Source: a virus
Taxonomy: Duplodnaviria; Caudoviricetes
Direction: 5' to 3' (one strand)
Length of the DNA stretch: 25,785 bases
Virus record (IMG/VR): IMGVR_UViG_3300022181_000007
Span: 1 to 25,785 of that record
Part shown: in pieces, positions 2,081 to 24,023 of the stretch
Layout: the number at the start of each line of letters is the position of its first letter
Numbering within the stretch: position 1 is the first letter of the stretch
The notes under the pieces: generated by a model
The model's database searches: none
What the model was told of the DNA's origin: nothing
Seen by the model: only the letters and a program-made list of their open reading frames with translations
Made by a program: the position numbers and the translations under genes

Positions 2081-2146
2081 TGCTTATCTACCTGGAGTAG
2101 AAGGAGCATCAAGGGCCTTCCTTAGCAGGAAGTGCCCTTTGCTTTT
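2081..2146 (+). ncRNA. Putative small structured RNA convergent on the DUF3800 operon
   Basis: It has its own promoter. The 5' hairpin pairs 2081-85/2104-08 and 2087-91/2097-2101. The 3' hairpin AAGGGC-CTTCCT-tagc-AGGAAG-t-GCCCTT is followed by TGCTTTT. Confidence 0.6.
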
Positions 2147-2619
2147 ATATAATTATTATAATCTTTTATTAGATCATTTCTCAGATTGGGATACTCTATA
2201 GGATAAGCTGTCCATAATATGATATAATTATTGCGACGTTCTAATACAACCAAATAATCCTCATTTTTATACCAAAGTAATATTCTTTTTTTCTTTTTTA
2301 TATTTTTTTCAAAACATAAAATTTCATTATTATTGCTGTTTGCTATTATTGGAGATATCCATCGTATATATTTTATGCGGTTAGGATTAGGATCTTTGAA
2401 ATTGTTATTTTTTTTATCTGTTCCTGATATAATATGCCAAAATGTATTTTCTTTACCATCATTACCAATACCTTGAGCTAACTTGATTGGTGTCGCATGG
2501 AAATAAGGTTTATTATCAATAAAATCTTTTCTGAAAATACGATATGCCTCCATTATTAAACGATTTGGGTCATAATCAACATCTTCTAATGTCAATAATG
2601 GTGGAAGAAAATTAAGCAT
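2122..2619 (-). CDS. Hypothetical protein, possible BECR/RelE-like RNase fold; partner of the DUF3800 protein
   Basis: AT-rich. Contains FWHIIS, R..YIRWI.PII and a C-terminal YLVVLERR..YIILWTAY beta-meander. ATG 2619 overlaps the upstream stop codon (ORF track starts at 2631). Confidence 0.55.
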   Translation of the reverse strand: MLNFLPPLLTLEDVDYDPNRLIMEAYRIFRKDFIDNKPYFHATPIKLAQGIGNDGKENTFWHIISGTDKKNNNFKDPNPNRIKYIRWISPIIANSNNNEILCFEKNIKKKKRILLWYKNEDYLVVLERRNNYIILWTAYPIEYPNLRNDLIKDYNNYIKAKGTSC

Positions 2620-3343
2620 TATGATCCTCATTCTCAGGATCCCAAATAAAAATATTAAATTTACTTTCTCTATATAGAGTTGATCGCGTTAAAGAATATC
2701 CTGAGCGCTGTTTGATCCTTTCAATTATTTTATTCTTACCAGCATTTGTATTTAAATCTCTTGCATTATATGACAATGCCCCAACAATAATATCTGTTAA
2801 CTGTATTAATTCAACATGGTGTGATTTTACTAATTGAATTGATTCTATTATTGAATGATTGAAATCATACATATTATTGCAGAGTACATCATGTAGCTTT
2901 GTTATTCTTTCTGCTCCTTGTATATCTTTATAATCTAAAAAAATATTATATTTATAATTTGGATCAATGATTGGCGTCAGCAATCTAAAAAACATTTTAT
3001 AATACCATTCATCATGTGTTTGATTGAACTTTTGATGATTTAATATACTTTTATCTGGAATAATTAATCCACGAAAATGCAGATCATCATCATCAAAAAA
3101 ATAATCAATTATATCTAAATAGGGCTGGTAATGATTAGATGATATTTTGCTCCATTTTATTTCACTTTCATGGCGTAACCCATATTTACCTTTAAATTCT
3201 ATCAATCTTCTCGTAATTTCTTTTATTTTTTTCTTCTCACACCAAATCGCACCTAGAGTCATTGCTTTTTGATGATCATGTTCTAGATGGCAACTCTCAT
3301 CACAATAGATATTAATGTAATCATCCATATACAAAATTCTCAT
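2612..3343 (-). CDS. DUF3800 family protein (RNase H-like fold)
   Basis: N-terminal IYCDESCHL, an EIKWSK motif, a central IFLDYK and a C-terminal S...ELIQLTDIIVGA. Confidence 0.85.
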   Translation of the reverse strand: MRILYMDDYINIYCDESCHLEHDHQKAMTLGAIWCEKKKIKEITRRLIEFKGKYGLRHESEIKWSKISSNHYQPYLDIIDYFFDDDDLHFRGLIIPDKSILNHQKFNQTHDEWYYKMFFRLLTPIIDPNYKYNIFLDYKDIQGAERITKLHDVLCNNMYDFNHSIIESIQLVKSHHVELIQLTDIIVGALSYNARDLNTNAGKNKIIERIKQRSGYSLTRSTLYRESKFNIFIWDPENEDHNA

Positions 3344-9653: not shown

Positions 9654-9863
9654 ATGACAAGGCTTGAGTGGGTAAAGGAATACAGGCCACACCACAATTT
9701 CGATAACCTTGTAGAAGATAGCTGTCCTGGCGTGTTTCGGAAAGATTGGCCGGTGGCATCATATGAGGAAAGGTATATAGATGACAAGGGCATTGTCGTT
9801 GGATGTCGCGGTAAGACCTGCAAGCAGTGCTGGGCTCATGAGGCGAATGATGACAAGGATTGA
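9654..9863 (+). CDS. Small Cys-rich (Zn-binding?) protein, paralog 1
   Basis: MTRLE...CPG...GIVVGCRGKTCKQCW. Confidence 0.7.
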   Translation: MTRLEWVKEYRPHHNFDNLVEDSCPGVFRKDWPVASYEERYIDDKGIVVGCRGKTCKQCWAHEANDDKD

Positions 9864-10044
9864 AAAAGCAGTAGAACTTACAGGCAAGGATAAAGATTTC
9901 ATCATTGGGAAATATTGTCCGCGGCAATTATTAGGCGGGAGACTATCAGTTTTTGATGAAAGTAGTGCAATATATGGCATAGGTGGAATAGTCATCGGTT
10001 GCAGGCGTACCACCTGTAATAAATGCTGGAGAAAAGATTTATGA
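9847..10044 (+). CDS. Small Cys-rich (Zn-binding?) protein, paralog 2
   Basis: MMTRIE...CPR...GIVIGCRRTTCNKCW, with a GAGG RBS before 9847. Confidence 0.7.
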   Translation: MMTRIEKAVELTGKDKDFIIGKYCPRQLLGGRLSVFDESSAIYGIGGIVIGCRRTTCNKCWRKDL

Positions 10045-10223
10045 GCCTATCAAAAATTTACGCCGATATAGAATTTGAAAGAGCGAATAATTTATCATGG
10101 TCCGAGAATGCATTATCAAAAGACAAAAGTAGTTTCTATACGCGCGGCGAGCTTATTCATCAGGCGGCAATAATCGTGCAAGCCATCAATGAACTAGATA
10201 ACTGCAATTTGGAGGGGAAATGA
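10041..10223 (+). CDS. Small protein resembling a truncated MazG-like helical NTP-pyrophosphatase
   Basis: I..ER...W...RGELIHQAAIIVQAINELD pattern, with ATGA overlaps at both ends. Confidence 0.45.
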   Translation: MSLSKIYADIEFERANNLSWSENALSKDKSSFYTRGELIHQAAIIVQAINELDNCNLEGK

Positions 10224-10396
10224 GTATCGGTAAAGACTTGGACGAGATCGCGGCGGAACTCATGCGTCTGGATTATGGCGAGCTGCATATTGTGGTGCGC
10301 GGCGGAGAGATTGTGAGCTATTCAATTATCAGATCCAAGCTGGTACTAAAAAGAAACGAAAAAGAGCATAAGCAATTACAAGAAAAACAATATTAG
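10220..10396 (+). CDS. DUF2292/YezD-like small protein (58 aa, not in the ORF track)
   Basis: MSIGKDLDEIAAELMRLDYGELHIVVRGGEIVSYSIIRSK...; helix then L.YG.L.IVV.GG.IV; GGAGG RBS. Confidence 0.6.
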   Translation: MSIGKDLDEIAAELMRLDYGELHIVVRGGEIVSYSIIRSKLVLKRNEKEHKQLQEKQY

Positions 10397-10405
10397 GAGG
10401 AGAAT

Positions 10406-11635
10406 ATGAAAGATATTTTATTGACAATCTTTGCAGTATTGAGATTTATTTATAATCATAGCAAAATTACTGGAAAACGAAACGGGTCAGAATTTTTTGC
10501 TGATCGTATTGTTCAAGCTGCCACAGAAAAAACATTGCTTGCTTTTGCTGAACGCCTATCAAAACTTGTTGATGCAGATATCGGTAGTATTTGGGAATCT
10601 CGAGGTGTTGAATTTTTGAGAATATCAGGTACTCAAGATGCGGCAAAAGTATACCAATGGATAAGGCTTTATCCCAGAATTGTTGCAATGATCTCTGCTC
10701 TTCCAAGAATGGAGCAAGTTGAAGAAGCAATAGAATCTATCGAAATAGAATCCGTCAAAGAAGATGGATGTGCCATACCTCAGGGCAAATATGAAATTCC
10801 TATCGAAATTACAACGCTTTCGCCGCTTGCTCATGGAGCAGATATAAAAGCTGGGAATGCGACATTATTTCGCAGAATGCAGGTTTTAAGCGATACTGGC
10901 GCAACGCTATCGCTGCCTTTCTATTCTGGGAATGCTTTGCGAGGCCAGATGCGCGATCTTCTTGCAGATGATTTTCTCCGAGCAATCGATATTAAGCCTA
11001 GCAGAACAAATCCGCCTATTGCTTTATGGTTTTTCCATACAATATATGCCGGTGGCGCCCTTGAAGAAAACAGCGATGCTGCTAAAGCATTCGGGAAATT
11101 GCTTGGTACTAATGGAGCAATCAAAGCAGAAGGAATCTATCAGTTTCGCGACACGCTTCCAATGATTTCCGCACTTGGGTGCTCCATTGGGAATCGCATT
11201 ATCGAAGGCAGAGCAAATTTTGGCGATTTTCGTCCATGTTGTTATGAGTGGTCCAATGGAAATATTAAGGTATCAGAATTAATGACATGGGAATTTTTAA
11301 CCAGGCGGGAAGATTTTGAAGGCCATGAAGATGGAGATAATAAATCCATGATCGCAACCATTGAATGCATAAAACCTGGTGTCGTTTTGCAGGGCGGAAT
11401 AGATATTCGAGGGCATGCTTCAGAACTCGAGCGATCTGTTATTGGGAAAGGGCTTTCACTGCTTGCAGATCGCGGATTCATAGGAGCTTATTCAAGGCAA
11501 GGTTTTGGTAAAGTAAGGATCGAGATCGAAAATGCTCCTGATGGCAAGCTGTATGAAAACTATCTTGCTGAAAATAAGAATAAGATCATTGACTATCTTG
11601 AATCGCTCGGTGCCATATGCATGCCATCAATTTAA
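10406..11635 (+). CDS. csf2: Type IV Cas7 (Csf2) with an N-terminal Cas11-like helical domain
   Basis: The RAMP core starts at residue ~129: ITTLSPLAHG, AGNATLFRR, PFYSGNALRGQMRD, GGAL, PMISALG, EFLTRRED and G-loop IGAYSRQGFGKV. Residues 1-~110 are helical. Confidence 0.88.
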   Translation: MKDILLTIFAVLRFIYNHSKITGKRNGSEFFADRIVQAATEKTLLAFAERLSKLVDADIGSIWESRGVEFLRISGTQDAAKVYQWIRLYPRIVAMISALPRMEQVEEAIESIEIESVKEDGCAIPQGKYEIPIEITTLSPLAHGADIKAGNATLFRRMQVLSDTGATLSLPFYSGNALRGQMRDLLADDFLRAIDIKPSRTNPPIALWFFHTIYAGGALEENSDAAKAFGKLLGTNGAIKAEGIYQFRDTLPMISALGCSIGNRIIEGRANFGDFRPCCYEWSNGNIKVSELMTWEFLTRREDFEGHEDGDNKSMIATIECIKPGVVLQGGIDIRGHASELERSVIGKGLSLLADRGFIGAYSRQGFGKVRIEIENAPDGKLYENYLAENKNKIIDYLESLGAICMPSI

Positions 11636-12363
11636 TTGCGCAATCGGTTAGGACTCTAGCGCCGGCATTGCCATGCGATCCTATAGAAGCGACATGCGCA
11701 GTAACCGGACAAGTTTGTCCTTGCCTCCCACGACGAGAAGTTCTCGGTGATAGTTTTACAAACATTGATTGTCTTCGCGCTCCGGAAAGCGAATTTGTTG
11801 GCGTCGATGTCTATATTGCTTGGTTCTTTGGATATAAGACAACTGAGGATAAAAAACGCCTGAAATGCCCGGAGCGCATGGCTAGCTGGATATGTGATGG
11901 CAATGAATTCCGCGAATTATCGCGTATTGAAATACGCGAGATGGTACTAAATGGGATTCCATATAAACAATGGGCTGCATACGTTACCACAAGCTATAAA
12001 AAACATGGGAGCTTATGGGCGAGAGTAAACATAGGTCCGAGAGGTATTTGGCGCTTTGAAATGATTGACGCCGATTGCCGAGATGAAAATAAGACGAGGG
12101 AATATTGGAATAGAATGAACGCTGCGGTTAACGCAGGAATCGGCAGGGGCATTATTGAAACGCTTGATATGCCACCCTATTTGACCATGAAGGTTGGAAT
12201 GAAAACATGGATTGAATATGAGAAATGGGCAAAACCAATATATCAGAGCGGATTATACCAGTTTCTTGCATATCTATTGCCGAGCGCAGAGGAGAGAATA
12301 AATGCGAAATCTGGAATTGGAAATGGAGGCATATCGAAAAGCAAACAGCTATCTTTATTCTAA
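11617..12363 (+). CDS. csf1: Type IV Cas8-like large subunit (Csf1)
   Basis: CAVTG...SFTNIDCLRAPES..V N-terminal pattern and a TTSYKKH motif, adjacent to csf2. Confidence 0.75.
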   Translation: MHAINLIAQSVRTLAPALPCDPIEATCAVTGQVCPCLPRREVLGDSFTNIDCLRAPESEFVGVDVYIAWFFGYKTTEDKKRLKCPERMASWICDGNEFRELSRIEIREMVLNGIPYKQWAAYVTTSYKKHGSLWARVNIGPRGIWRFEMIDADCRDENKTREYWNRMNAAVNAGIGRGIIETLDMPPYLTMKVGMKTWIEYEKWAKPIYQSGLYQFLAYLLPSAEERINAKSGIGNGGISKSKQLSLF

Positions 12364-13042
12364 ACATATTCGAAATGCAGAGGAAATCATTAGAGTTGCG
12401 TTATTGCAATGTAAAAATCCAGCGATAGCATTATCTGGAGGCAAGGATTCTGTTGCAATGGCAGGGTTGGTCTGCAAATTTTGCAGTCCTAAAATAATCT
12501 GGAATGATTCCGGGCTTGAATTACCAGAAAGTAAAAGCATCATCTATGAAATTGCAGATAGATTTGGGCTCGAGATAATTGTTGCGAAAGGATGTGCAAT
12601 AGAAGAAGCCGAAGCTATAGGCCGCGGAGAATTATCGCGATATGACAAAAAAGTAATTAATAGTATTGATACAATAATAAATCCAGTTAGGAAAGCACTT
12701 ATTGAGCATGGAATCGATCTTGAGTTTGTAGGGCTTAGGAAAAAAGAAAGCATAAAGCGGCGGATGTTATTATCTCAATATGGGCCTATCCACTATTCAA
12801 AAAAATGGGGCATAAAAATTGCCTGGCCAATGATGAATTGGGATGGCAGGGATTGCCTCGCATATATATGTGAAAATAATTTACCGATTCATCCAGCATA
12901 TTTAATGGCTTCAGATCCTGCGATGGCACGAGTTTCATGGGCGTTTGATACAGCTCGCGAGGCGCCTGCTGAAACTGAAGTAGTGAGAAGAAATTATCCC
13001 GAAATCTATAGAAAATTAAGAGAGGCAGGCTTATGTCAATAA
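12302..13042 (+). CDS. CysH-like (PAPS reductase family, PP-loop) protein of type IV-B loci
   Basis: SGGKDS, DSGLE.PE, GLRKKES..RR and PMMNW...D...YI..NNLPIHPAY. Confidence 0.9.
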   Translation: MRNLELEMEAYRKANSYLYSKHIRNAEEIIRVALLQCKNPAIALSGGKDSVAMAGLVCKFCSPKIIWNDSGLELPESKSIIYEIADRFGLEIIVAKGCAIEEAEAIGRGELSRYDKKVINSIDTIINPVRKALIEHGIDLEFVGLRKKESIKRRMLLSQYGPIHYSKKWGIKIAWPMMNWDGRDCLAYICENNLPIHPAYLMASDPAMARVSWAFDTAREAPAETEVVRRNYPEIYRKLREAGLCQ

Positions 13043-13728
13043 ACAATCTTAAGATAACATTTTTTCTCGATGGCACTGGCGTCTATTATGATCCATATGA
13101 GCCGATACATCTTGATGCTCTTATGGCGTGGGCCCTCATGCCATTTCATCGATCGAAGGGATCACAAGCTCCATCAAGAGATGAGGAACCAATTGATGTG
13201 CCTCTGCCGCTTGATAAATGGCAGCTTGCAGGAACATGGGGATGGAAAGCAAGCGCACTATTTCCAGAAGGAATTACTGCAGAAAGCATGCAATATTGGC
13301 GTAAAAGATTTCGCCAATCTCGTATTGAAATTACAAGCGGTAGCCCTAATCTGCAAAATGGTATATATAGAGAATACAATACTCCATTACCATTATTACT
13401 TTGCCATAGGATGGTTGCTTATGCAGTCGGAGATCGTGGGCGTGTTGAACAGGTATTGCGTAAGCATATCAAGTATCTTGGTAAGAAAAATGCCTATGGT
13501 AAAGGCCATGTCCTTGGAGTAACTGTTGAGATTGTAAATTACGATTGGTCGATGTATCGAGATGGCAAGCCTATGCGTTTTTTGCCCGACACAACCGGGA
13601 CCAGAATGGTAAGGCCACGGCCACCATATTGGAACAATTGCGGGCGTGTCTTATGTGGAGAGATCCCTATGAGGCAGATCTCATTTCTTCCAACCAATCA
13701 ACAAGAGCAAATTGCTGACCTGGTGTGA
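13033..13728 (+). CDS. csf3: Type IV Cas5 (Csf3)
   Basis: LKITF.L...PIHLDALMAWA, W.W.AS, G-rich loop LGKKNAYGKGHV and RPRPPYW. Confidence 0.85.
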   Translation: MSINNLKITFFLDGTGVYYDPYEPIHLDALMAWALMPFHRSKGSQAPSRDEEPIDVPLPLDKWQLAGTWGWKASALFPEGITAESMQYWRKRFRQSRIEITSGSPNLQNGIYREYNTPLPLLLCHRMVAYAVGDRGRVEQVLRKHIKYLGKKNAYGKGHVLGVTVEIVNYDWSMYRDGKPMRFLPDTTGTRMVRPRPPYWNNCGRVLCGEIPMRQISFLPTNQQEQIADLV

Positions 13729-14068
13729 GATTCCTCAATTTTTCAATAAGAGCGGCGCGGTCCACACCGAAAAACTCAAATTGACTTGGATCTTCATCCT
13801 CTGTATCGGCAAGCACAGCGCCAATAATTGTCTGATAACTATAGATAGTTGAAAGCGCATTATTAAGCAGAAGATTGATCTCATTTTCTTCAAATAGATC
13901 GCGTAGTCTGCGCCTTTCGGCGCGAACCAGTTCGTCATATCTGCCCAATATTTCAGTCAATGTCGCCGACTGGCCATATTCGCCCTCATCAGTATTAAGC
14001 CGCTCAGCATATTTCTTGAGAAGCGCCTCAAGATTTTTATTGAGATATACAGTTGTTCGTCTGCTCAT
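13667..14068 (-). CDS. Putative RHH-type transcriptional regulator
   Basis: N-terminal RTTVYL beta-strand plus helices (S.TL.EIL.RY); GGGAG RBS. Confidence 0.6.
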   Translation of the reverse strand: MSRRTTVYLNKNLEALLKKYAERLNTDEGEYGQSATLTEILGRYDELVRAERRRLRDLFEENEINLLLNNALSTIYSYQTIIGAVLADTEDEDPSQFEFFGVDRAALIEKLRNLTPGQQFALVDWLEEMRSAS

Positions 14069-14133
14069 TTAATTCTCCCTATGATTCTTAAATTTCATAA
14101 AGCAGCAGTTTCTTCCCATTTTAAACCTCCCAA

Positions 14134-14160
14134 CCCTTCGGCAACTTTATCGCCGAAGGG
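14134..14160 (-). other. Intercistronic hairpin
   Basis: Minus strand CCCTTCGGCGA-taaag-TTGCCGAAGGG, followed by GGGAGG rather than a U-tract. Confidence 0.6.
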
Positions 14161-14169
14161 CTATAATAT

Positions 14170-14697
14170 CTATAAATTAAAAGATTCTGGCAAATAGATT
14201 ATTGTTTTTGCCGGTCTATAGTTGCCGCTTTTCCACCATTTCGTTGTTCGAATGCCTGGGAAAAATTTGCCACTTTTTGTTTCAAAACCCCATGGCTCAT
14301 GCTTTATAACTGGCTCATCTATTTTATCATAATATGCTTCAGTGCATGATTTATATCCAGCCTTACGTGCAAGCGCATTAAGCTTCCGCAGGCTCTCATT
14401 AGAAAGTTTGGAAAGATCAATCTTGCTCTGATTGTCTGGGCAATAGACTTCAATACTATAGAGGGTAGGTATGCCATCGCCCCATCTGGTTGATCCAACT
14501 TGCACCGAGCAGCGGCATTTGGCAACTACGCCATTTCCAAGGTCATAATCAGCAGATTCATCTAGGCGATTCTTCAGCGCGATATCCATTCCATTACCAC
14601 TGCAATCGGAAGGAAGAACATGATAGGTTTTCCCTATCTCGATCTTTCCAGCAACATAAAGTTGCCGGAGATTTTCTGCCATTTGCTCTGTCTTCAT
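14170..14697 (-). CDS. Hypothetical protein
   Basis: 175-aa ORF with an AAGGAG RBS and its own promoter. Confidence 0.7.
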   Translation of the reverse strand: MKTEQMAENLRQLYVAGKIEIGKTYHVLPSDCSGNGMDIALKNRLDESADYDLGNGVVAKCRCSVQVGSTRWGDGIPTLYSIEVYCPDNQSKIDLSKLSNESLRKLNALARKAGYKSCTEAYYDKIDEPVIKHEPWGFETKSGKFFPGIRTTKWWKSGNYRPAKTIIYLPESFNL

Positions 14698-14771
14698 ATT
14701 TTGCTCCTTGCCGCCTCCCTTTCGGTAGCGGACTCAGTTTATTGAGAGAGTCTCTCGCTCTCTCTGAATAG

Positions 14772-14800
14772 AATATACAACTATATAGTCATACACGCAA
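14772..14800 (-). promoter_or_regulatory. Leftward promoter with a palindromic operator in the spacer
   Basis: TTGCGT, 17-nt spacer, TATATT on the minus strand; perfect palindrome ACTATATAGT at 14780-14789. Confidence 0.65.
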
Positions 14801-14853
14801 TAGCAAATGCGATAAAAATCAATACTACAAAGAAGAAATGCTTAAAATTCATC

Positions 14854-14888
14854 TTGACAAACGTTAAGTAATGAATTATATATATACT
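14854..14888 (+). promoter_or_regulatory. Probable late promoter
   Basis: TTGACA (14854-14859), 17-nt spacer, TATATA; an alternative -10 TATACT sits at 14883-14888. Confidence 0.6.
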
Positions 14889-14899
14889 TGAAAAGAGTT

Positions 14900-14979
14900 T
14901 GCGGATCTAACCGATAAACGGGCGACCGCATGCTGTGATTTTGAATTACCTTGCCTAACCGATAAACGGGCGGCGAGGT
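14900..14979 (+). repeat. Two identical 18-nt repeats in tandem hairpins (structured late leader or mini-array)
   Basis: CTAACCGATAAACGGGCG at 14907-14924 and 14955-14972, closed by different outer stems. Confidence 0.8.
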
Positions 14980-15061
14980 TCGTCTCGACAAAGCCAAGAA
15001 TAAGGCTGTTGGGATGGACGTCGCCGCCCGTCATGTTTATATGGCGGCGAAAGGGTTATGG

Positions 15062-15514
15062 ATGCCCACGAAGCCGGCCAGAATGTGCAAATACCCATAC
15101 TGCCCCAACCTCACCTATGATCCATCCGGCTATTGTGACATCCATGCGGCTATGCGCCAGGCTGGCAGGATGCCTGACAAGCGCCCATCTTCGCCGCGGC
15201 GAGGCTATGGACGCGACTGGCAGAAGGTCCGCGCTGAAGTGCTCACCAAGGCAGGAATCCCTCGCGATCTCTGGCCGCTCTATGATGTTGACCATAACCC
15301 GCCATACAATCCTGCAATCGAGCCTGATCATCGAAAATACACGCTGATTCCAAGGCTGCATGGCGAGCACTCGAGCAAAACGAACCGTGAAGATGGAGGT
15401 TTTGGCCACAGACGGGGGGAGTCGATATCTTTGCAATCTTTTGCCGTAAACCGGATGCGTTGCTCGATGTCCCACACTACGGATTCCCGGGGTAAGGGGG
15501 TGCGCCATGCCTAA
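15062..15514 (+). CDS. Terminase-associated HNH endonuclease-like protein
   Basis: MPTKPARMC.YP.CP.L...YC..H, RGYG..WQK.R, VDH, H..KT..EDGGFG; positioned before terS. Confidence 0.8.
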   Translation: MPTKPARMCKYPYCPNLTYDPSGYCDIHAAMRQAGRMPDKRPSSPRRGYGRDWQKVRAEVLTKAGIPRDLWPLYDVDHNPPYNPAIEPDHRKYTLIPRLHGEHSSKTNREDGGFGHRRGESISLQSFAVNRMRCSMSHTTDSRGKGVRHA

Positions 15515-16001
15515 GCCGCGCGTGCCGACCCAGATTAAGGTAATCCGCGGGACTTTCCGGCGGAACGAAGCGCCAGCCAATGAGCCTCAGCCCGACTTGC
15601 TTAAAGCAGCCCCCAAGCCTCCTGCGCACCTTAATAAATGGGCAAAGCGCATGTGGAAAGACATCGCAGGCAAGCTGCTGGCGCTCGGCATGCTCACGGA
15701 TATCGATCTCTATACCCTCGAAGTGCTCTGCGAGCAGTACGGCATTTACCGTGAGCTCAAAGATGCGATCACGCATCGAGAGACGCCTGCTGGGCGCGAG
15801 AAGATCAGCATCGCGCAATACCTGGCCGGCCAGAACTCCCAGACCATCCCGGAATATGCCGCCATGCGGGCGGCGTTCGAGCGCTACACTGCCCTCTTAA
15901 AAGAATTTGGACTTTCGCCTGCTTCGCGCAGTCGAATGGATATCCCTCGCGAGCCTCCAAAGGCTGTTGATCCGATGGAGGAATTGCTGAATGCGAAATA
16001 A
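15507..16001 (+). CDS. terS: Terminase small subunit, P27 family
   Basis: P.PT..K..RG, PP.HL...AK..W and EFGLSPASRSR. Confidence 0.92.
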   Translation: MPKPRVPTQIKVIRGTFRRNEAPANEPQPDLLKAAPKPPAHLNKWAKRMWKDIAGKLLALGMLTDIDLYTLEVLCEQYGIYRELKDAITHRETPAGREKISIAQYLAGQNSQTIPEYAAMRAAFERYTALLKEFGLSPASRSRMDIPREPPKAVDPMEELLNAK

Positions 16002-17778
16002 GTGGCTTTTTCTGGCGGTGGCAATTATGACGGCAAGTTTGCGACCTGAAATCCTCTATGCAGAAAAAGTCTTGAACGGTGAAATTGTCGCTTGCAAGCT
16101 GGTCAAGCTTGCTTGCCAGCGTCATCTGGATGATTTGAAGCGCCAGAACACGGAGAAATTCCCTTACACATTTGACGCTGCACGAGCTGATCATGCGATC
16201 GCTTTTATCGAACAGCTCCGGCATGTTGAAGGCCCGTCTGCCTCAACAATCGGTGGCCGCGACAATCGGATAAAGCTTGAGCTCTGGCAAAAATTCTTTG
16301 TTGGCAATTTGTTTGGCTGGCGAAGAGCTGATGGTACACGGCGATTCCGGCATGTCTATTTCGAGGTTGCCAGAAAGAATGCAAAAACAACTCTTGGTGC
16401 GGGCATTGCCAATTATATCTTCTGGGCGGACCGCCCCGCCGATCCTGGATGCCAGATATATTTTGCTGCGACCAAACAGGAACAGGCAGCTTTGGCATGG
16501 AGAATTGCCAGGCTGCAGATTGAGCGACATCCGGTATTGAAGAATCTCGGGAAAACATACGAGTCGAAGCAGTACATCGTTAAAACAATGAAGGATGCAA
16601 AAGGAAGGCCAATCTCCGATTGGTCAAGCCGTATGCGTCCGCTCGGACAGGATTCAAAGACAGAAGATGGCCTCAATCCATCGCTTGCAATCATCGATGA
16701 ATATCATGCTCATCCGACGAGCGAAATTCTGGATGTGCTCGAGTCTGGCATGATGGCTAGGCTCCAGCCGCTTACTCTGATTCTCACGACCGCGGGAAGC
16801 AATTTCGATGGGCCATGCTACCAGGTAGAGCGTCCGCTCGCAGTCGGTATCCTTGAAAAGACTCTGCAACCAATTCCGGAAGACGTCTTTGCACTTATCT
16901 ATACACTCGATGAAGGCGACGATTTCGCCGATCCGAAAGTATGGATAAAAGCAAACCCGAACCTCGGCGTATCAGTGATGCCGCAATTACTAGAATCGCG
17001 TGTCGCGATGGCTTTGGCGGCACCGGCGCGGGCCCGCGATGTAAAAACAAAAAATTTCAATATCTGGCAGCAAAGTATCAATCGCTGGATTACTGATGAT
17101 ATTTGGATGGCATGCGCTGAGCCGGTCGATGAAGAGACTTTGGCTGGGCGGCATTGCACGCTTGGTCTTGACTTATCAACAAATACGGACCTTACCGCAA
17201 TTTGCGCAGCGTTCCCTCCTGCAGAGCCAGGCGAAAAATGGAAAACAATCTGGCGGCTCTTTATGCCGATGGACAATCTCCTTGAACGCGAACGCCAAGA
17301 CAAAGTTCCATATACCGAGTGGGCGCGCCTGGGGCTCATCATCCCAACCGATGGCAACACTGTCGATTATGACTTTATCGAACAAGAAATACGCATCTTC
17401 GGCGATAAGTACCTGATAGATGAAATTGCTTATGACCCTTTCAAGGCTGGTGAAGTTGTTGCCCATCTCTCAAGCGAATTTACTATGGTTGCTGTACCGC
17501 AGCGGTACAACCCGATGGCCATTTACTCCGATATTTTCGAGCGGCTGGTCCGCAAAGGCGAACTCGCACATGGCGGGCACCCTATTTTGCGCTGGATGAT
17601 GTCCTGCACTGAAGTCAAAGCGGATCGCCAGGGCAATATCATGCCCATGAAACCGCGGCGCGAAACAAGCGGAAAGCGCATAGATGGAATCGTCGCTGCA
17701 ATTATGGCGATTGGCCGGGCATCGATTACCAATGGCGGTGAAACTGGATTTGCCAAAGCTGATGAGGTGGTAGGATGA
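15991..17778 (+). CDS. terL: Terminase large subunit
   Basis: Walker A ARKNAKTT, Walker B IIDEYH, TTAG, KANPNLG, nuclease GLDLS...DLTA and RIDGIVA. Confidence 0.97.
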   Translation: MRNKWLFLAVAIMTASLRPEILYAEKVLNGEIVACKLVKLACQRHLDDLKRQNTEKFPYTFDAARADHAIAFIEQLRHVEGPSASTIGGRDNRIKLELWQKFFVGNLFGWRRADGTRRFRHVYFEVARKNAKTTLGAGIANYIFWADRPADPGCQIYFAATKQEQAALAWRIARLQIERHPVLKNLGKTYESKQYIVKTMKDAKGRPISDWSSRMRPLGQDSKTEDGLNPSLAIIDEYHAHPTSEILDVLESGMMARLQPLTLILTTAGSNFDGPCYQVERPLAVGILEKTLQPIPEDVFALIYTLDEGDDFADPKVWIKANPNLGVSVMPQLLESRVAMALAAPARARDVKTKNFNIWQQSINRWITDDIWMACAEPVDEETLAGRHCTLGLDLSTNTDLTAICAAFPPAEPGEKWKTIWRLFMPMDNLLERERQDKVPYTEWARLGLIIPTDGNTVDYDFIEQEIRIFGDKYLIDEIAYDPFKAGEVVAHLSSEFTMVAVPQRYNPMAIYSDIFERLVRKGELAHGGHPILRWMMSCTEVKADRQGNIMPMKPRRETSGKRIDGIVAAIMAIGRASITNGGETGFAKADEVVG

Positions 17779-18980
17779 AATTTGGCGAAAGATTGAGACT
17801 TGCGGCACGCGCCCTGATATTTGGCAGCGATGATTGGGTCCGCGCGCTGAAAGGATACTATGAAACGGCCTCCGGACAGATAGTGACCGCCGATACCGCC
17901 ATGCGGATCGCAACAGTGAATGCCTGCGTGCGGATCCTTTCCGAGACAGTCGCATCACTGCCTTTGCATGTCTATCAGCGGCTTGATAATGGCGGCAAGG
18001 AGCGGGCATCAGATCATCCATTATATGAGCTTTTACATTCGCGGCCCAATCCCTGGCAAACAAGTTTCGAATTCCGCGAGCAGATGATGTCGCATTTGCT
18101 TCTGCGGGGCAACTTTTATGCAGTTAAACTCTATCATGGCGACTTGATCATTGATGATCTTATTCCTCTCAATCCTGACAATGTGACAGTGCTACAGTTG
18201 CCTGATTATTCATTGCAATATCAGATATTGACTGGTACTGGATCAGAATCGATTATTTTAGGGCAGAAAGACATCTTACATATCCGTGGGTTGTCAAAAA
18301 ATGGAATCCTTGGCGAATCTGTCATATCGCAAGCTCGCGATGTATTCGGATCGGCATTGGCGACCCAGGAATATGCCGGGAAATTCTGGCGCAACGATGC
18401 AACTCCAGCAGGAATTATCAAGGTAGCAAAAAAACTTGAAAAAGGCGAAGCAGACCGCATACGCGAAATCTGGAACGATGATCATGCTGGCTCAGGGAAT
18501 GCGCACAAATTGCATGTGCTTGGCGACGGGGCCAGCTTCGAAAAAATTGAAATGACAGCCGAGGATAGTCAGCTTATTGAGACCAGGCGTTTTCAGAGAT
18601 CTGAAATTGCATCCCTTTTCAAAGTCCCGCTCATGCTTCTGCAGGCTGATACTCAAACAACTACTTATGCAAGTTCCGAGCAATTCATGCTGGCATTTAC
18701 CATGCATAGCATTCGCCCCTGGCTTGTGCGCATCGAGCAGGCACTGCAAATGCAGCTCTTTACCGCGCCGCAGAAATATTTCCCAGAATTTAACCTTGAC
18801 GGACTGCTCCGCGGCGATCTCAAGAGCCGCTATGAAGCCTATAAGATCGCCCGTGATGCGGGCTGGATGTCAAAGAATGATATCCGCGAGAAGGAAAATA
18901 TGAACCCAATTGAAAACGGCGACGATTATCGTTCGCTTGCTGAACTGCAGAACGCAAAGAACCTCACAGGAGGCGCATGA
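17775..18980 (+). CDS. Portal protein, HK97 family
   Basis: V.ACV.ILSETVASLPL, PNPWQT, LLRGN.Y, ILHIRG, LLRGD..SR and N.IR..EN..P. Confidence 0.96.
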   Translation: MKFGERLRLAARALIFGSDDWVRALKGYYETASGQIVTADTAMRIATVNACVRILSETVASLPLHVYQRLDNGGKERASDHPLYELLHSRPNPWQTSFEFREQMMSHLLLRGNFYAVKLYHGDLIIDDLIPLNPDNVTVLQLPDYSLQYQILTGTGSESIILGQKDILHIRGLSKNGILGESVISQARDVFGSALATQEYAGKFWRNDATPAGIIKVAKKLEKGEADRIREIWNDDHAGSGNAHKLHVLGDGASFEKIEMTAEDSQLIETRRFQRSEIASLFKVPLMLLQADTQTTTYASSEQFMLAFTMHSIRPWLVRIEQALQMQLFTAPQKYFPEFNLDGLLRGDLKSRYEAYKIARDAGWMSKNDIREKENMNPIENGDDYRSLAELQNAKNLTGGA

Positions 18981-19792
18981 TGATACGGTCAAAATGGTAT
19001 GCAATCGACATAGCTCCCGATTATGCCGAAATCTCGGTTTTTGATGAAATTGGTGGATTCGGCGTTTCGGTAACCGATTTCAAAGAGCAGTTTGATTCGA
19101 TAAAAAATGCAAAACAGATTCGGCTTTTACTGAATAGCCCTGGCGGGGCTGTTACTGAAGGCATGGCGTTCTACAACCTGCTCGCCTCTGTCCGCGATAA
19201 ACTCACGGTCGAAGTAATCGGACTTGCGGCATCGATGGCATCAGTGGTGGCGCTTGCCGGATCGAAACTCGTTATGGATGAGGGCACCTACCTCATGATC
19301 CATAACCCATGGACCATTACCTGGGGTGATGCGGATCAGCTGCGGAAAGATGCTGATGTGCTCGACAAGATGCGGTCAGAATTGATTTCGATTTATGCCG
19401 CGCATTCCAAGCTCTCGCCAAAAGAGATTGGCCAGATGATGGATGATGAGACCTGGCTGACCGCGCAAGAGGCATTTGATTCCGGTTTTGCCGATGAAGT
19501 GCGCGAAACTGTGCAGGCAGCTGCGCTGTATGATGTATCAAAAATTGGATTCAAAAAGATTCCAATGGCGCTCAAGCATCTTGATTTTCGCTCAATAAAA
19601 ACAATTCGCGACTTCGAGGCGTTCCTGCGGGACGCAGGCGCGACTCGCGCGGAGGCTGCTGCTATCGCCTCCGGCGGATGGAAGGCGCTCCAGCGGGATG
19701 CGGAGCAACCGAAATCCGAAGATGATGGCGAAATAAAAGAGGCTCTTAGCGGGCTGATATCAATCCTAAAAGGAGAAAGCAATGGACTCTGA
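18977..19792 (+). CDS. Head maturation protease, ClpP-related
   Basis: NSPGG, GLAASMAS, MIHNPW and ETWLTA.EA...GFAD. Confidence 0.95.
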   Translation: MMIRSKWYAIDIAPDYAEISVFDEIGGFGVSVTDFKEQFDSIKNAKQIRLLLNSPGGAVTEGMAFYNLLASVRDKLTVEVIGLAASMASVVALAGSKLVMDEGTYLMIHNPWTITWGDADQLRKDADVLDKMRSELISIYAAHSKLSPKEIGQMMDDETWLTAQEAFDSGFADEVRETVQAAALYDVSKIGFKKIPMALKHLDFRSIKTIRDFEAFLRDAGATRAEAAAIASGGWKALQRDAEQPKSEDDGEIKEALSGLISILKGESNGL

Positions 19793-20963
19793 TGTAAAGG
19801 AAATGCTCGATAATCTTGGCAAGGAATGGAAGGCGTTTCGCGATGTGAACGACCAGCGCCTTGCGGCGATCGAAGCGAAGCAGGGGCATGCGGAGCTCGA
19901 CGCGAAGCTTGCTGCAATCGAAAAAGAGCTTACCGAAAGCAAAGCGCAGATCAACCGCGTCATGCTTGGCGCGCGACTGGGCGGCGCTGAGGAAAAGAGC
20001 GAGCTCTATCGCGCCTTCACCGATTGGATGCGCGATCCGGGCCGCTCCCAGCAATTCAAGGCAGCCGTGCAGGTGCAGACCGGCGGCGATGGCGGCTATC
20101 TTGTACTGCCCGAGCTCGAAAAAACCCTGCAGCGTGTGGTTAGCGACAGCGTGGCAATGCGTCAGCTTGCCAATGTGAAGACTATCGGCGGCAAATCCTA
20201 CCTCAAGAATGTCAACAAGGGCGGGATCACCGGCGGATGGGCTTCTGAGGGAGAGACTAGAAGCGGGAATAACACGACTCCTGGGCTCGCACAGATCGAA
20301 ATTATCCCGCGCGAGCTCTATACCCTGCCCTCAGCATCGCAGGAAGCGCTCGACGACCTCGATTTCGATGTGGCGGCATGGCTGGCTGAGGAAGCCGGAA
20401 TCGCATTCTCCAGCCTTGAGGATGCAGCGTTTATCGCTGGCGATGGCAACGGCAAGCCAAAGGGGTTCCTCGCTGAAACGATGGTGGCGAACAGTTCATG
20501 GGCCTGGGAGAAGATCGGCTACATCCTCTCTGGTGCAGCCGGAGCATTTCCCACAACCCATCCCGGTGATGTGCTGATCGATCTCATCTATGCGCTCAAG
20601 GCAGGCTACCGCAATGGTGCAGCATGGATCATGAATGATCTCACCCAGTCTGTAGTGCGCAAGTTCAAAGATGGTCAGGGAAACTACCTCTGGCAGCCTT
20701 CTTTCCAGCTTGGCAAGCCTGATACCCTATGCGGCTACCCGGTCATGATTTCCGACAGCATGCCCGATATAGCGGCCGATGCTTATTCGATAGCATTCGG
20801 CAATTTCAAACAGGGCTACCAGATTGTCGACCGCAAGGGTGTCCGCGTACTCGCAGATCCTTATACCACGAAAGGCGCAGTGACCTTCTATACCTACAAA
20901 CGCGTGGGCGGAGCGGTCGCTGACTATAATGCGATTAAGGTTATCAAATTCGCGGCGGCTTAG
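19782..20963 (+). CDS. Major capsid protein, HK97 fold
   Basis: Coiled-coil delta domain, DGGYLV.PE, GDG.GKPKG, KD..G.YLWQP, FGNF..GY.IVDR and RVGG. Confidence 0.97.
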   Translation: MDSDVKEMLDNLGKEWKAFRDVNDQRLAAIEAKQGHAELDAKLAAIEKELTESKAQINRVMLGARLGGAEEKSELYRAFTDWMRDPGRSQQFKAAVQVQTGGDGGYLVLPELEKTLQRVVSDSVAMRQLANVKTIGGKSYLKNVNKGGITGGWASEGETRSGNNTTPGLAQIEIIPRELYTLPSASQEALDDLDFDVAAWLAEEAGIAFSSLEDAAFIAGDGNGKPKGFLAETMVANSSWAWEKIGYILSGAAGAFPTTHPGDVLIDLIYALKAGYRNGAAWIMNDLTQSVVRKFKDGQGNYLWQPSFQLGKPDTLCGYPVMISDSMPDIAADAYSIAFGNFKQGYQIVDRKGVRVLADPYTTKGAVTFYTYKRVGGAVADYNAIKVIKFAAA

Positions 20964-20975
20964 GCTGAGGTTAAC

Positions 20976-21003
20976 AAGGCAGTAGCTATCTAGCTACTGC
21001 CTT
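20976..21003 (+). terminator. Hairpin after the capsid gene (terminator or mRNA stabiliser)
   Basis: Perfect 13-bp inverted repeat AAGGCAGTAGCTA-tc-TAGCTACTGCCTT with a weak U-tract. Confidence 0.6.
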
Positions 21004-21005
21004 CC

Positions 21006-21581
21006 ATGGAGGAGATGATGCTGAGCACTGATGCGCTGACAAGCTGGGAAACCGCAAAAACCATGCTGGGCTTTGCTGATGACCAACAATCGGTTGTCGA
21101 ATTCCTCATCAATGCTGTCTCGGCGACTGCAAATCGCATCTCGGGCCGTAGGCTGAAGGCAAGGGATTATGATCTGCGCCTAAATGGCACCGACAAAAAT
21201 TCGATAGTATTGCCCGAGTATCCCATCGTCTCTCTGTCAAAGGTATATATCGATGGCAATCGGGAATTTCCTCCGGAATCGGAAATTGATCCTGATATGG
21301 TTTCTATCGATCCGGATGGAGGGATAATTCGGCTACATGACATGATTTTCCCCGCCGGGATTGGAAATGTGCGGGTAATCGCCAAACTTGGCTATGATCC
21401 GGTGCCCCAGGACCTAGAACTCGCTGTACTCGAAGCAATCTCATACAACAGGCGGCGACTGGAATCCGGTACAACCGGCATGCGGCAAGTCAGTGTTGAT
21501 GGAACTGTCACCTCGCAATATGAACTCGGCCTGCCACTCTCCATTCGCGAAGTATTCGAAGGATATCGGAGCAACCTATGA
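21006..21581 (+). CDS. Head-tail connector (gp6/gp8-like)
   Basis: LI.A.S....., L..YPI, GY..VP.DL..A; follows the capsid gene. The real start is probably 21015 or 21018, after GGAGGAG. Confidence 0.8.
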   Translation: MEEMMLSTDALTSWETAKTMLGFADDQQSVVEFLINAVSATANRISGRRLKARDYDLRLNGTDKNSIVLPEYPIVSLSKVYIDGNREFPPESEIDPDMVSIDPDGGIIRLHDMIFPAGIGNVRVIAKLGYDPVPQDLELAVLEAISYNRRRLESGTTGMRQVSVDGTVTSQYELGLPLSIREVFEGYRSNL

Positions 21582-22024
21582 TCTCGATGACGGTCCAAAC
21601 AAAAAAATACGGAGATCTCGGAAAATTCGCGGATAACGAGCTCCTCAAAATGTCTGCCAGAATCACTTCTCTATGGGGAGAAAGCCTCGCGAATTATATC
21701 AGAGAAAACCAGCTGTCTGGTCAGGTCCTGCAAGTTGTAACAGGCGAAACACGAGCCTCAATGGGCTTCTACAAGCTCAAAAAAGACAAGAAAGCAACAA
21801 TGGTTGTAAGACCAGGCAAAGGTGTAAAGGGGCATCTCAATTACCTCGCAGGGATGCAACGCGGCATGCTTGCGGGGCGCGGGCGTAAAGTACTTATACG
21901 GCCAAAGCCATTCATGAAGCCTGGCTTTCGAGCATGGCGGGCAACCGGCGAGCCTCGGCGCATCAAAGAAGAGGTATTCCAGGCATATCTGAAGCATAGC
22001 TTTGCATCGGGAGGCAGCGCATGA
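21578..22024 (+). CDS. Neck/tail-completion protein (HK97 gp10-like)
   Basis: V.TG..R.S and C-terminal I.PKPFMKP motifs; gene position. Confidence 0.65.
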   Translation: MISMTVQTKKYGDLGKFADNELLKMSARITSLWGESLANYIRENQLSGQVLQVVTGETRASMGFYKLKKDKKATMVVRPGKGVKGHLNYLAGMQRGMLAGRGRKVLIRPKPFMKPGFRAWRATGEPRRIKEEVFQAYLKHSFASGGSA

Positions 22025-22467
22025 AGATCTGGAATATCTACCGCACTGTGAAAGGCTATCTTGAGCAAAATCTCAATTCAAAAATTGAGGCGCTCGCTAC
22101 TGATGCAAATATTGCCTGCGCAGCGGCTAAAGCATTCTGGGTTGGATGGAGAGATCCATTCAACCTCAAGGATTACAACTCGGTATTTGTGGTCCCTGAT
22201 ACCCTCAAGCGTAACGATGATGCAGTAACCGATGATGTCTCTATTGCGATTATCGCGGCATTAAAATCCCCGACTCCTGATTCTCTCTCTGACCAGATGG
22301 GTATCTATGCCGACGCAATCGCTACGGTTATCGAAGATGATCCTACATTAGGAGGTGTCGCATTTGAAGCAAATGTCATCGATTTCGATTTTTCACTGCC
22401 TGCACCAGGCTCTCCGCTGATTGGTGCACTCACCGCAATAATCATGGTCCGCATGGACCGAATCTAA
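22021..22467 (+). CDS. Tail terminator-like protein
   Basis: Acidic, DPTLGG motif, immediately before the tail tube gene. Confidence 0.6.
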   Translation: MKIWNIYRTVKGYLEQNLNSKIEALATDANIACAAAKAFWVGWRDPFNLKDYNSVFVVPDTLKRNDDAVTDDVSIAIIAALKSPTPDSLSDQMGIYADAIATVIEDDPTLGGVAFEANVIDFDFSLPAPGSPLIGALTAIIMVRMDRI

Positions 22468-22489
22468 GATCAATCTTGGGAGGATTGTA

Positions 22490-23134
22490 ATGGCAAATCG
22501 ATTTTCTGGTACGAAAAATTATCTGTATCTGGGCTCGCTCGGAACTGAGGTAACCACTGGGAGTCTCTCTGGCGAGAAATTCTTCAAGATCACCGCGAAA
22601 GGCGCCTCGAGCGCATTCCCGGCGGATTCGGTGGCCAATGATGTCGTCTACAACAAGCCGGCCATCACGCTCGCATCTGGCGACAAAGCGAAACCAATCG
22701 AGCTTACCAAGCTGGGCTTTGTGACGAATGTGCCGCAGAGCGCATCCAAGGAAAAATATGAAAATACCGTGCAGACGGATGTCGCTAAATCATATGAGGA
22801 AGGCGACAAGCCGGAAATTTCCGGCACCATCGACGGCTATTTTACCGATGATGCAAATGCGGATCTCATCCTCAAACGATTCTTCCGCCTTATCGATGAC
22901 AACGGCGCCGGGCAGAAAACATATCAGCCGATCGAAACCGGCGTTCTGCATTTCTTCCTTGGGCGCAGGGAAACAACCACCGTTGGTCAGGTTGAAGTCA
23001 TGGAATATATGCCGGCAATTATCGACAGCCTCACCGTTGATAAGCCGATGAACGGCCCGCAGACCTTCAACTTCGCCTACACCGTGATCGGCAATGAAAT
23101 GCCGTCGATCACCAGACGTACCATAACGGCATAG
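22490..23134 (+). CDS. Major tail (tube) protein
   Basis: Strong RBS, beta-rich T/G/S composition, size, and position before the chaperones. Confidence 0.7.
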   Translation: MANRFSGTKNYLYLGSLGTEVTTGSLSGEKFFKITAKGASSAFPADSVANDVVYNKPAITLASGDKAKPIELTKLGFVTNVPQSASKEKYENTVQTDVAKSYEEGDKPEISGTIDGYFTDDANADLILKRFFRLIDDNGAGQKTYQPIETGVLHFFLGRRETTTVGQVEVMEYMPAIIDSLTVDKPMNGPQTFNFAYTVIGNEMPSITRRTITA

Positions 23135-23138
23135 GGCT

Positions 23139-23396
23139 ATGGCGGTATTGAAAATTAGGGCCGGGGCGAACCCGGCCGACCCTGCCGACGTACAACTATG
23201 GTTTGGTGAGGAAGCCATAGAAAATGCAAAAGTGATCGAAGCATACAATGATCACGGGAAAAAGCGAGTGATCGCAGAGATTATCTGGGAGGAAAAACTT
23301 GGAAGAAAAGAAGTCGAAAAGAGTGACAAGCGCAAAGGTGACAACCTACGAGCCGGATCTGTCGTGGAACAAATGGAAGGAACAGCCCAAAAATAA
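23139..23396 (+). CDS. Hypothetical protein between tail tube and chaperone
   Basis: Fills the gap after the tube gene but overlaps the next ORF by 98 nt. Confidence 0.4.
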   Translation: MAVLKIRAGANPADPADVQLWFGEEAIENAKVIEAYNDHGKKRVIAEIIWEEKLGRKEVEKSDKRKGDNLRAGSVVEQMEGTAQK

Positions 23397-23697
23397 TGCT
23401 CCTGGCATTCCTATGCCTGATGACGAGAAGGTGAAGGTCGAGATCACCTGGCCGGATATCGAGACTTTCGAGCGATTGATCGGGAATGATTCAACCTTCG
23501 CAACATTCATAACCCTTACCAAGCACTGTGCGACGAAGATTACTGGCTTCAGCTTGCATGGCGAGCCAATCGAAACCGGCGCTGAGCTGGCAGCGGTCCG
23601 TGCCGGGCGCACGAGCAAGGCGCGAGAGTTGGCAATCAATATTGGGTCCTACATTTTCAAGGAAAGCCTCCTGGATGAGGAAGAGGAAAAAAACTGA
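23299..23697 (+). CDS. Tail assembly chaperone (gpG-like)
   Basis: GGAGG RBS with a TTG start; ends EEEKN* over a slippery sequence. Confidence 0.75.
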   Translation: MEEKKSKRVTSAKVTTYEPDLSWNKWKEQPKNNAPGIPMPDDEKVKVEITWPDIETFERLIGNDSTFATFITLTKHCATKITGFSLHGEPIETGAELAAVRAGRTSKARELAINIGSYIFKESLLDEEEEKN

Positions 23698-24023
23698 GAG
23701 CTGCGGCGCAATTGGCATTTGCTGATTGTGCCGCAGATGATCCGGATTGGGAAAATTTTGCGCCGGATGAATATGAAATTTTGCCATCATCGATTGATGA
23801 ATCAGGCAAAATGCTGGTTAAGCGGAGGGATGTGCCGAACTTATTAACTGATCCGCTTTTCCTGTCCGGCTGGAAGGAATGGACCAGATATCGAAGGTTC
23901 GGATTGCCGCATGGCGGCGGATGGCGGAATGAGAAACCTCTTGTAATTCGGGTCATTGAGGTATTCGAGCAGGAATTCGAAGCGAAGCAAGCTGCAGAGA
24001 TGGAGAAAATGCGCCATGGCTGA
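23688..24023 (+). CDS. -1 frameshift extension of the tail chaperone (gpGT-like)
   Basis: A AAA AAC at 23688-23694. The -1 frame reads KKLRAAAQLAFAD... with no stop into ORF 23712..24023. Confidence 0.8.
   Translation, partial: KKLRAAAQLAFADCAADDPDWENFAPDEYEILPSSIDESGKMLVKRRDVPNLLTDPLFLSGWKEWTRYRRFGLPHGGGWRNEKPLVIRVIEVFEQEFEAKQAAEMEKMRHG

Follow-up and report, generated by a model that had tools for sequence, protein, structure and literature searches.

Type IV-B CRISPR-Cas loci that lie in prophages and viruses, carry a cysH-like gene and lack CRISPR arrays have already been published (e.g., PMC10848311, 10.1101/2023.08.02.551345), and what type IV-B does has been named as an open question (10.1101/780106, PMC8175902, PMC13676074). 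In the solved complex of Mycobacterium sp. JS623 (csf1-cas11-csf2-csf3 plus a cysH-like gene; Protein Data Bank (PDB) entry 7jhy), six Csf2 and five Cas11 subunits form a filament, and Asp42 of Csf2 is a putative catalytic residue (PMC7937560). Here we describe a four-gene cas operon at positions 10406 to 13728 of a 25,785-nt stretch of viral DNA (the complete IMG/VR record IMGVR_UViG_3300022181_000007, Duplodnaviria; Caudoviricetes), hereafter the window. Like the JS623 locus, it combines Csf1 (a weak match), Csf2, Csf3, Cas11 and a CysH-like protein that keeps the PP-motif without a catalytic Cys, it has no array, cas6, adaptation module or helicase, and it resides on a mobile element; this gene content bears out the initial annotation, in which the locus was called type IV-B-like and array-less. 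It differs from the JS623 locus in that Cas7 carries Cas11 as an N-terminal fusion, the gene order is cas11-7, csf1, enzyme, csf3, Asp42 has no counterpart, CysH is replaceable, and the clade belongs to temperate phages, here with a likely Spirochaetota host. We regard the locus as a real variant of type IV-B, namely a phage clade with a fused backbone, a swappable enzyme and a dispensable cassette. Tentatively, and at somewhat less than an even chance, we predict from its genes an RNA-scaffolded, non-cutting complex by which, in the lytic cycle, a modifying enzyme is brought to DNA.

The operon consists of four + strand open reading frames (ORFs) at 10406-11635 (409 aa), 11617-12363 (248 aa), 12302-13042 (246 aa) and 13033-13728 (231 aa), which overlap successively by 19, 62 and 10 nt. 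A GGAGGAG ribosome site precedes the 10406 start, which lies 9 nt behind the stop of ORF 10220-10396, as had been noted. The order proposed earlier (Csf2/Cas7, Csf1, CysH-like, Csf3) was confirmed by PADLOC and Pfam matches to all four proteins (Csf2, E 3e-47; Csf1, 6e-6; PAPS_reduct, 2.6e-18; Csf3, 1.5e-34), so that RAMP-fold evidence, through Cas7 and Cas5, is present for both 10406..11635 and 13033..13728. The features of the operon are as follows.

10406..10735, + strand: N-terminal Cas11 (type IV small subunit) domain, residues ~1-110, all helical (profile, fold, PADLOC)
10736..11635, + strand: linker and Cas7 (Csf2) RAMP domain, residues ~129-401 (PADLOC, VIA, conservation)
11617..12363, + strand: Csf1 (Cas8-like), divergent (PADLOC type IV Cas8, E 6e-6; conservation)
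12302..13042, + strand: CasCysH, PP-loop ATP pyrophosphatase with the PAPS reductase fold and no conserved Cys, in an exchangeable slot (Pfam PF01507)
13033..13728, + strand: Csf3 (Cas5) (PADLOC Csf3_0_IV, E 1.5e-34)

The prophage setting was likewise upheld, since the window adjoins tRNA-Asp and tRNA-Pro and carries an integrase, cI, RusA, a replication initiator, terminase, portal and capsid/head genes. The capsid cluster representative carries the name Rectinema sp., and the phage host is therefore likely a spirochaete (Spirochaetota). As the initial annotation had stated, the window shows no CRISPR array, and cas6, cas1/2 and dinG had no match among its 25 scanned proteins, on a contig that runs only to the tail genes; an Rfam scan of the window returned the two tRNAs and nothing else. 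The accompanying claim that no nuclease is visible holds for Cas nucleases but not overall, since the window contains ordinary phage nuclease genes (RusA, HNH and exonuclease).

The first gene was assigned from both of its parts. The PADLOC Csf2_0_IV match spans only residues 129-401 of the 409-aa protein, and the Csf2 score lies under the NCBIfam equivalog cut-off; the model of the whole protein best resembles type IV Cas7 folds (VIA Z 16.0-16.3 to 8rc2, 8rc3 and 7jhy; for 7jhy_e, Z 16.0, root-mean-square deviation (rmsd) 2.8, 208 residues aligned). For the N-terminal domain, a 71-sequence profile searched against the PDB had Cas11c of 11fs as its sole significant match (E 4.9e-5), PADLOC Cas11_0_IV matched at E 1.4e-4, and the model of the domain (pLDDT 92.7) placed 7jhy_h of the type IV-B complex at the top of 48,161 chains (Z 7.1, rmsd 3.3, 99 aligned), with a chain of a type I-B Cascade next (Z 5.2). 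A Z of 7 is by itself modest for a helical bundle, Foldseek of the same model gave nothing significant, and the N-domains of three relatives, taken singly, had no PADLOC match. Because profile, PADLOC and fold agree and there is no separate cas11 gene, the first gene is, as judged from sequence and models, a Cas11-Cas7 fusion, and Cas11 is thus present as a fused domain rather than as its own gene. No stand-alone short homologs of the N-domain were found in a search of low sensitivity.

A protein search with the fusion gave 449 matches, the best 120 of which span nearly the whole length. The 132 loci gathered together with the window were collapsed to 97 non-redundant loci; since motifs of this clade were used to gather them, the counts below are not a census of all IV-B. 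The full-length fusion occurs in 89 of the 97, seven are cut by contig ends and one (L037) is split into two ORFs. The linker spacing is 29-36 residues in 87/87 sequences, and G150 and N151 are invariant in the same 87/87. In alignments to 7jhy, Asp42 of the Mycobacterium Csf2 falls on G150 or on the gap before N151; since its position is taken by these invariant residues and has no counterpart, RNA cleavage by the fusion protein is unlikely. The geometry of six Csf2 to five Cas11 in the solved filament is compatible with a one-to-one fusion. A further locus (L216:1708-2979) encodes a 423-aa Cas7 in csf1-cas7 order with no match to the Cas11 N-domain profile; it is possibly a second, remoter fusion.

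The other two Cas proteins differ in how closely they resemble described ones. The Csf3 profile matches the solved IV-A Csf3 at E 2e-15. Csf1 matches two PADLOC type IV Cas8 profiles weakly (E 6e-6 and 7e-6), and a PDB profile search returned no solved relative of it; its family has one invariant Cys and a conserved TTSYKKHG motif.

Other systems were compared with the locus. In type III-E, Cas7-11 combines several Cas7 domains and a Cas11 domain in a single large nuclease chain; the present protein likewise joins Cas7 and Cas11 in one chain, but as one Cas11 and one Cas7 in a 409-aa unit predicted to polymerise. Type IV-A has a DinG helicase, Cas6/Csf5 and an array and no Cas11, while here the first three are found neither in the window nor among recurrent neighbours and a Cas11 domain is present. 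The virus-encoded IV-B loci of Fuxiviridae (PMC10848311), of a Methanoperedens virus (10.1101/2023.08.02.551345) and of Skermania phage SPI1 share the IV-B module and cysH; in the latter two the cas11 position is taken by a small gene of its own, the Fuxivirus has a mini-array, and neither fusion nor enzyme swap was seen in the accessible parts of these sources. A literature search whose scope left out supplements and most subscription papers turned up no account of either the enzyme swap or a Cas11-Cas7 fusion in type IV, and the accessible text of PMC9723712, PMC4158269 and PMC13676074 describes neither.

Type IV-C (Pyrococcus abyssi, 11fs) is mostly array-less, and in the PDB it matches the two domains of the fusion best by sequence, with E 2e-12 for Cas7 and 5e-5 for Cas11. 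It differs in being chromosomal and in having a large subunit that is Cas10-like and carries an HD nuclease; here the large subunit is the 248-aa Csf1 and there is no nuclease. These matches, together with the finding that array-less IV-C complexes take crRNAs (CRISPR RNAs) from distant arrays and bind dsDNA (PMC13676074) and that IV-A silences without cutting (PMC11519345), speak for RNA-guided silencing of host or competitor DNA, in which crRNAs borrowed in trans would form IV-A-like R-loops and the enzyme would mark or lock the target against transcription. We consider this unlikely, since neither helicase nor array nor mini-array occurs in the 97 loci and the operon sits in a lytic position, not in the lysogeny region where a candidate defence pair (PDC-M04) sits.

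To compare the enzyme position across relatives, we counted the 65 loci with all three core genes and set aside the 32/97 that were incomplete. A PAPS-reductase-family gene is held by 52/65: short CysH only in 41, CysH together with a pair consisting of a longer PAPS-reductase/DUF3440 protein and a ParB-like protein in six, and this pair without short CysH in five. We take the pair to be IbrAB. A radical SAM enzyme carrying a B12-binding domain is found in 9/65 operons and a DUF4417-like protein in 2/65, one of them on a contig that ends 47 nt past csf3. The slot holds a glycosyltransferase in 1/65, the model of which resembles T4 beta-glucosyltransferase clusters (TM 0.81-0.82, predicted). 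Overall, 64/65 complete operons have an enzyme-sized gene in or beside the core, and the remaining one is cut 23 nt after csf3. None of the nine radical SAM operons has a PAPS-family gene (2e-8 under independence of loci, which does not hold). On a quick, midpoint-rooted Cas11-Cas7 tree of this clade only, the radical SAM label changes six times, with at least four changes forced by well-supported branches. Searching outward with the radical SAM enzyme, we found type IV genes adjoining 16/16 viral loci, nine of them new and some with the canonical csf1-cas11-csf2-csf3 order; starting from the glucosyltransferase-like or the DUF4417-like protein, the viral scans yielded no loci, and the cas link of these two is known from three loci. 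The chemically unrelated fillers (PAPS-family, B12 radical SAM and T4 beta-glucosyltransferase-like) each have nucleic-acid-modifying relatives, and the CysH position is, on this comparison of gene content, an exchangeable slot for putative modifying enzymes. The earlier remark that cysH lies inside the effector genes describes a common arrangement (38/50 single-enzyme operons have it between Cas genes) but not a fixed one.

The same comparison bears on the idea that the enzymes are hitch-hikers from a phage modification hotspot and independent of the Cas complex. Genes of the methyltransferase, GNAT and IbrAB types are inserted within some operons and have been gained and lost there, and 3/21 loci of the CasCysH clade have no cas gene inside 5 kb. 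However, both main enzyme families are nearly confined to cas loci and mutually exclusive (among the best 80 of 247 viral CasCysH matches inspected, 18/21 of those with >=100 bits, which form the CasCysH clade, lie <=5 kb from cas genes, and 0/59 of the weaker, generic ones do), and hardly any complete operon lacks an enzyme, which makes hitch-hiking a highly doubtful explanation.

Further variation was seen in individual loci. Small helix-turn-helix genes, possible regulators, lie within the operon in L002, L029, L038, L054 and L086. In L029, an operon placed directly upstream of a tape-measure gene has two csf3 copies (order cas11-7, csf3, cysH, csf1, csf3), and at L136:4523-7233 two tandem B12 radical SAM genes follow the csf3 of a canonical IV-B locus.

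CasCysH itself matches Pfam PF01507 (PAPS_reduct) at E 2.6e-18 and keeps the PP-motif. In its family S45, G47, K48, S50, G144 and E149 are invariant in 54/54, and no cysteine is conserved (best Cys column 26/54). Weak PADLOC matches were obtained to BrxP (1.5e-10) and SspD (0.003). All four DNA phosphorothioation systems use a PAPS-reductase-family enzyme (PMC12914056), and CasCysH belongs to the same fold family with pyrophosphatase activity as DndC, SspD, BrxP and TdpC, but unlike these it has no conserved Cys, and the operon encodes no partner P-loop ATPase, the NTPase that accompanies the enzyme in phosphorothioation (PMC12914056). Sulfur transfer by CasCysH is therefore unlikely. Retention of the PP-motif without a conserved Cys fits the AMPylation previously proposed for CasCysH (PMC8175902, section 7).

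The closest solved relatives of CasCysH are PAPS reductase, CysD and FAD synthase, which use small molecules, and a signalling role has been suggested (PMC8175902, 10.1101/270033). The enzyme may accordingly make or alter a small nucleotide signal, or modify a protein, once the ribonucleoprotein senses RNA, with no DNA modification. We judge this improbable, because replacement by a radical SAM enzyme or a glycosyltransferase would demand a new signal every time and because no recurrent sensor or effector gene lies beside the operon in the relatives' loci.

For the favoured reading, modification of DNA by a complex that binds RNA, the predicted steps are as follows. The fusion protein would polymerise along RNA into a filament with one Cas11 for each Cas7 and with Csf3 and Csf1 as caps, on the model of 7jhy and its 6:5 filament. 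This complex would bind and not cut, since the operon has no nuclease gene and Asp42 no counterpart, and CasCysH would adenylylate the bound or displaced DNA strand from ATP; other phages would instead rely on methylation or on glycosylation. Rather than being encoded beside the operon, the guide would come from the host as a borrowed crRNA or from a phage transcript, which is the least certain step, and the purpose would probably be to shield phage DNA from host nucleases. The initial annotation had offered crRNA sequestration or nucleic-acid modification as functions; modification is favoured over sulfur metabolism or plain sponging because the slot is swapped among unrelated chemistries, and sequestration has fared less well. 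A more specific version, in which the filament loads host anti-phage crRNAs, locates the matching phage protospacers and lets the partner enzyme mark exactly those sites, seems quite unlikely. If true, it would be a natural RNA-guided DNA modification with interchangeable adenylylation, radical methylation and glucosylation, by which CRISPR memory is turned into phage protection, and the complex, if RNA-guided, would provide a compact programmable DNA-marking tool.

Several points weigh against DNA modification. The glucosyltransferase case is one non-redundant locus with predicted models only; RNA, proteins and small molecules, too, are substrates of B12 radical SAM and PP-loop enzymes; and the region between the replication and terminase genes takes up phage modification genes in general. 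A DNA methyltransferase lies within ~5 kb in 15/42 relatives (no control). The solved IV-B complex bound heterogeneous RNA in E. coli, mostly non-CRISPR and with few co-expressed crRNAs (PMC7937560), and Csf1 is too divergent for residues that read the protospacer adjacent motif to be mapped. A comparison of 71 upstream and 50 downstream flanks showed no conserved non-coding RNA except among three close relatives, so that a dedicated guide is missing. Finally, substrate, product, guide RNA and expression are all predictions.

The lack of an own guide speaks for an anti-CRISPR sponge, in which the filament would capture small RNAs such as crRNAs of the host, while the enzyme would modify or cap the RNA and block reloading. 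CRISPR-like arrays or repeats beside the relatives were absent from all 97 loci (953 kb), and a sponge has been proposed for IV-B in print (10.1101/780106, PMC8175902, 10.1101/2023.08.02.551345). It would suit the non-specific RNA loading in 7jhy (PMC7937560) and the patchy presence of the cassette, as expected of a counter-defence gene, and a cas1 match is present in 5/9 host assemblies. On the other hand, the other 4/9, two of them of 3.7 and 5.7 Mb, have no cas1 match (assemblies may be incomplete), IV-B correlates negatively with several host CRISPR subtypes (10.1101/780106), neither Csf1 nor a partner resembling a DNA glucosyltransferase would be required for a sponge, and the late-operon location in 8/42 loci comes too late against interference at entry. 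We therefore consider the sponge rather unlikely.

An exact repeat of 18 nt, with copies at 14907 and 14955, raised the possibility of a mini-array (repeat-spacer-repeat), which we rejected: the repeat lies outside the insertion described below, is present in the cas-less sister phages L163-L166 and L170, occurs in no other cas locus (<=2 mismatches) and folds as twin hairpins. It is part of a phage late leader. This late-gene leader (14853-15031, + strand), which is kept in sister phages, has a promoter-like site (TTGACA-17 nt-TATATA) followed by two hairpins that share the 18-nt core and whose outer stems covary (6/24 pairs double-changed, five sequences), and then by a third inverted repeat; it is a candidate regulatory RNA with no Rfam match. 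In the cas-less sisters a small DUF2292 gene lies directly upstream of it.

The boundaries of the cassette were defined by comparison with these sisters. In blastn, the alignment of the window to L163-L166 ends at 10341 and restarts at 14853, and L166 is 99% identical over 14853-24441 yet lacks the cassette; among the contigs of run X5, one has 10332 joined to 14853 (an empty site), and a second contig, otherwise identical to the window, has two deletions in 11237-13388 that remove most of the operon interior. Three features describe the insertion.

10342..14852, no strand: whole accessory insertion (cas operon and two reverse ORFs), ends approximate (blastn, contig joint, GC3)
13667..14068, - strand: 133-aa ORF, possibly a ribbon-helix-helix regulator (by eye; weak PA0613 match, E 0.021)
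14170..14697, - strand: 175-aa ORF within the insertion, no function assigned (absent from other cas loci examined)

The 133-aa ORF likewise had no tblastn match in other cas loci. GC content at third codon positions (GC3) is 0.30-0.39 in the insertion and 0.50-0.66 in the late genes, yet the three Cas genes are under purifying selection (pN 0.08-0.19 against saturated pS, relative to 80%-identical relatives), and a search with the replication gene gave 44 loci, all without a cas match. Since it is absent in sisters, deleted in X5, and low in GC3 yet under purifying selection, the cassette is a dispensable mobile module. The clade thereby makes IV-B function testable: it offers three Cas chains with a fixed Cas7:Cas11 stoichiometry, a partner enzyme swapped among unrelated chemistries, and natural near-isogenic phages with the site intact, deleted or empty.

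These findings contradict the claim that the operon is wired into the lytic early transcript as a fixed design, since it is absent in four sisters, deleted in the X5 contig and often elsewhere in relatives. Its positions were tallied by hand in 42 relatives with >=4 kb of flank on one side, with selected neighbours scanned and no control. The operon lies <=~5 kb from terminase or portal on the same strand in 19/42 and directly upstream of terminase or portal in 11/42; in 8/42 it is part of the late head operon, directly downstream of the gene for the terminase large subunit. Action in the lytic cycle, as had been proposed, is plausible because the operon is co-oriented with the rightward phage genes and no terminator between it and the replication gene was listed in the scan (in which terminator counts were barely above shuffles), and lytic expression is a plausible prediction; the early timing, however, is not general across relatives, to judge by gene position. 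The promoter scan of the window showed no excess (25 matches against 21.1 in shuffles), and RNA runs X14, X17 and X8 gave short low-depth contigs only. In a named strain, Sulfuriferula multivorans, the operon lies between portal and gpF head genes of a Mu-like prophage (L125:7079-14051).

Other features of the window lie apart from the operon. The PDC-M04A (DUF3800) and PDC-M04B genes form a two-gene candidate defence system at 2122-3343 (- strand) beside the integrase, with 29% GC. At 9654-10044 (+ strand) lie two small paralogous ORFs that overlap and have a Cys motif at the C-terminus, and in the sisters L165 and L166 their homolog is placed upstream of the replication gene instead. At the contig end (25406-25784), three 132-nt repeats lie probably within the tape-measure gene.

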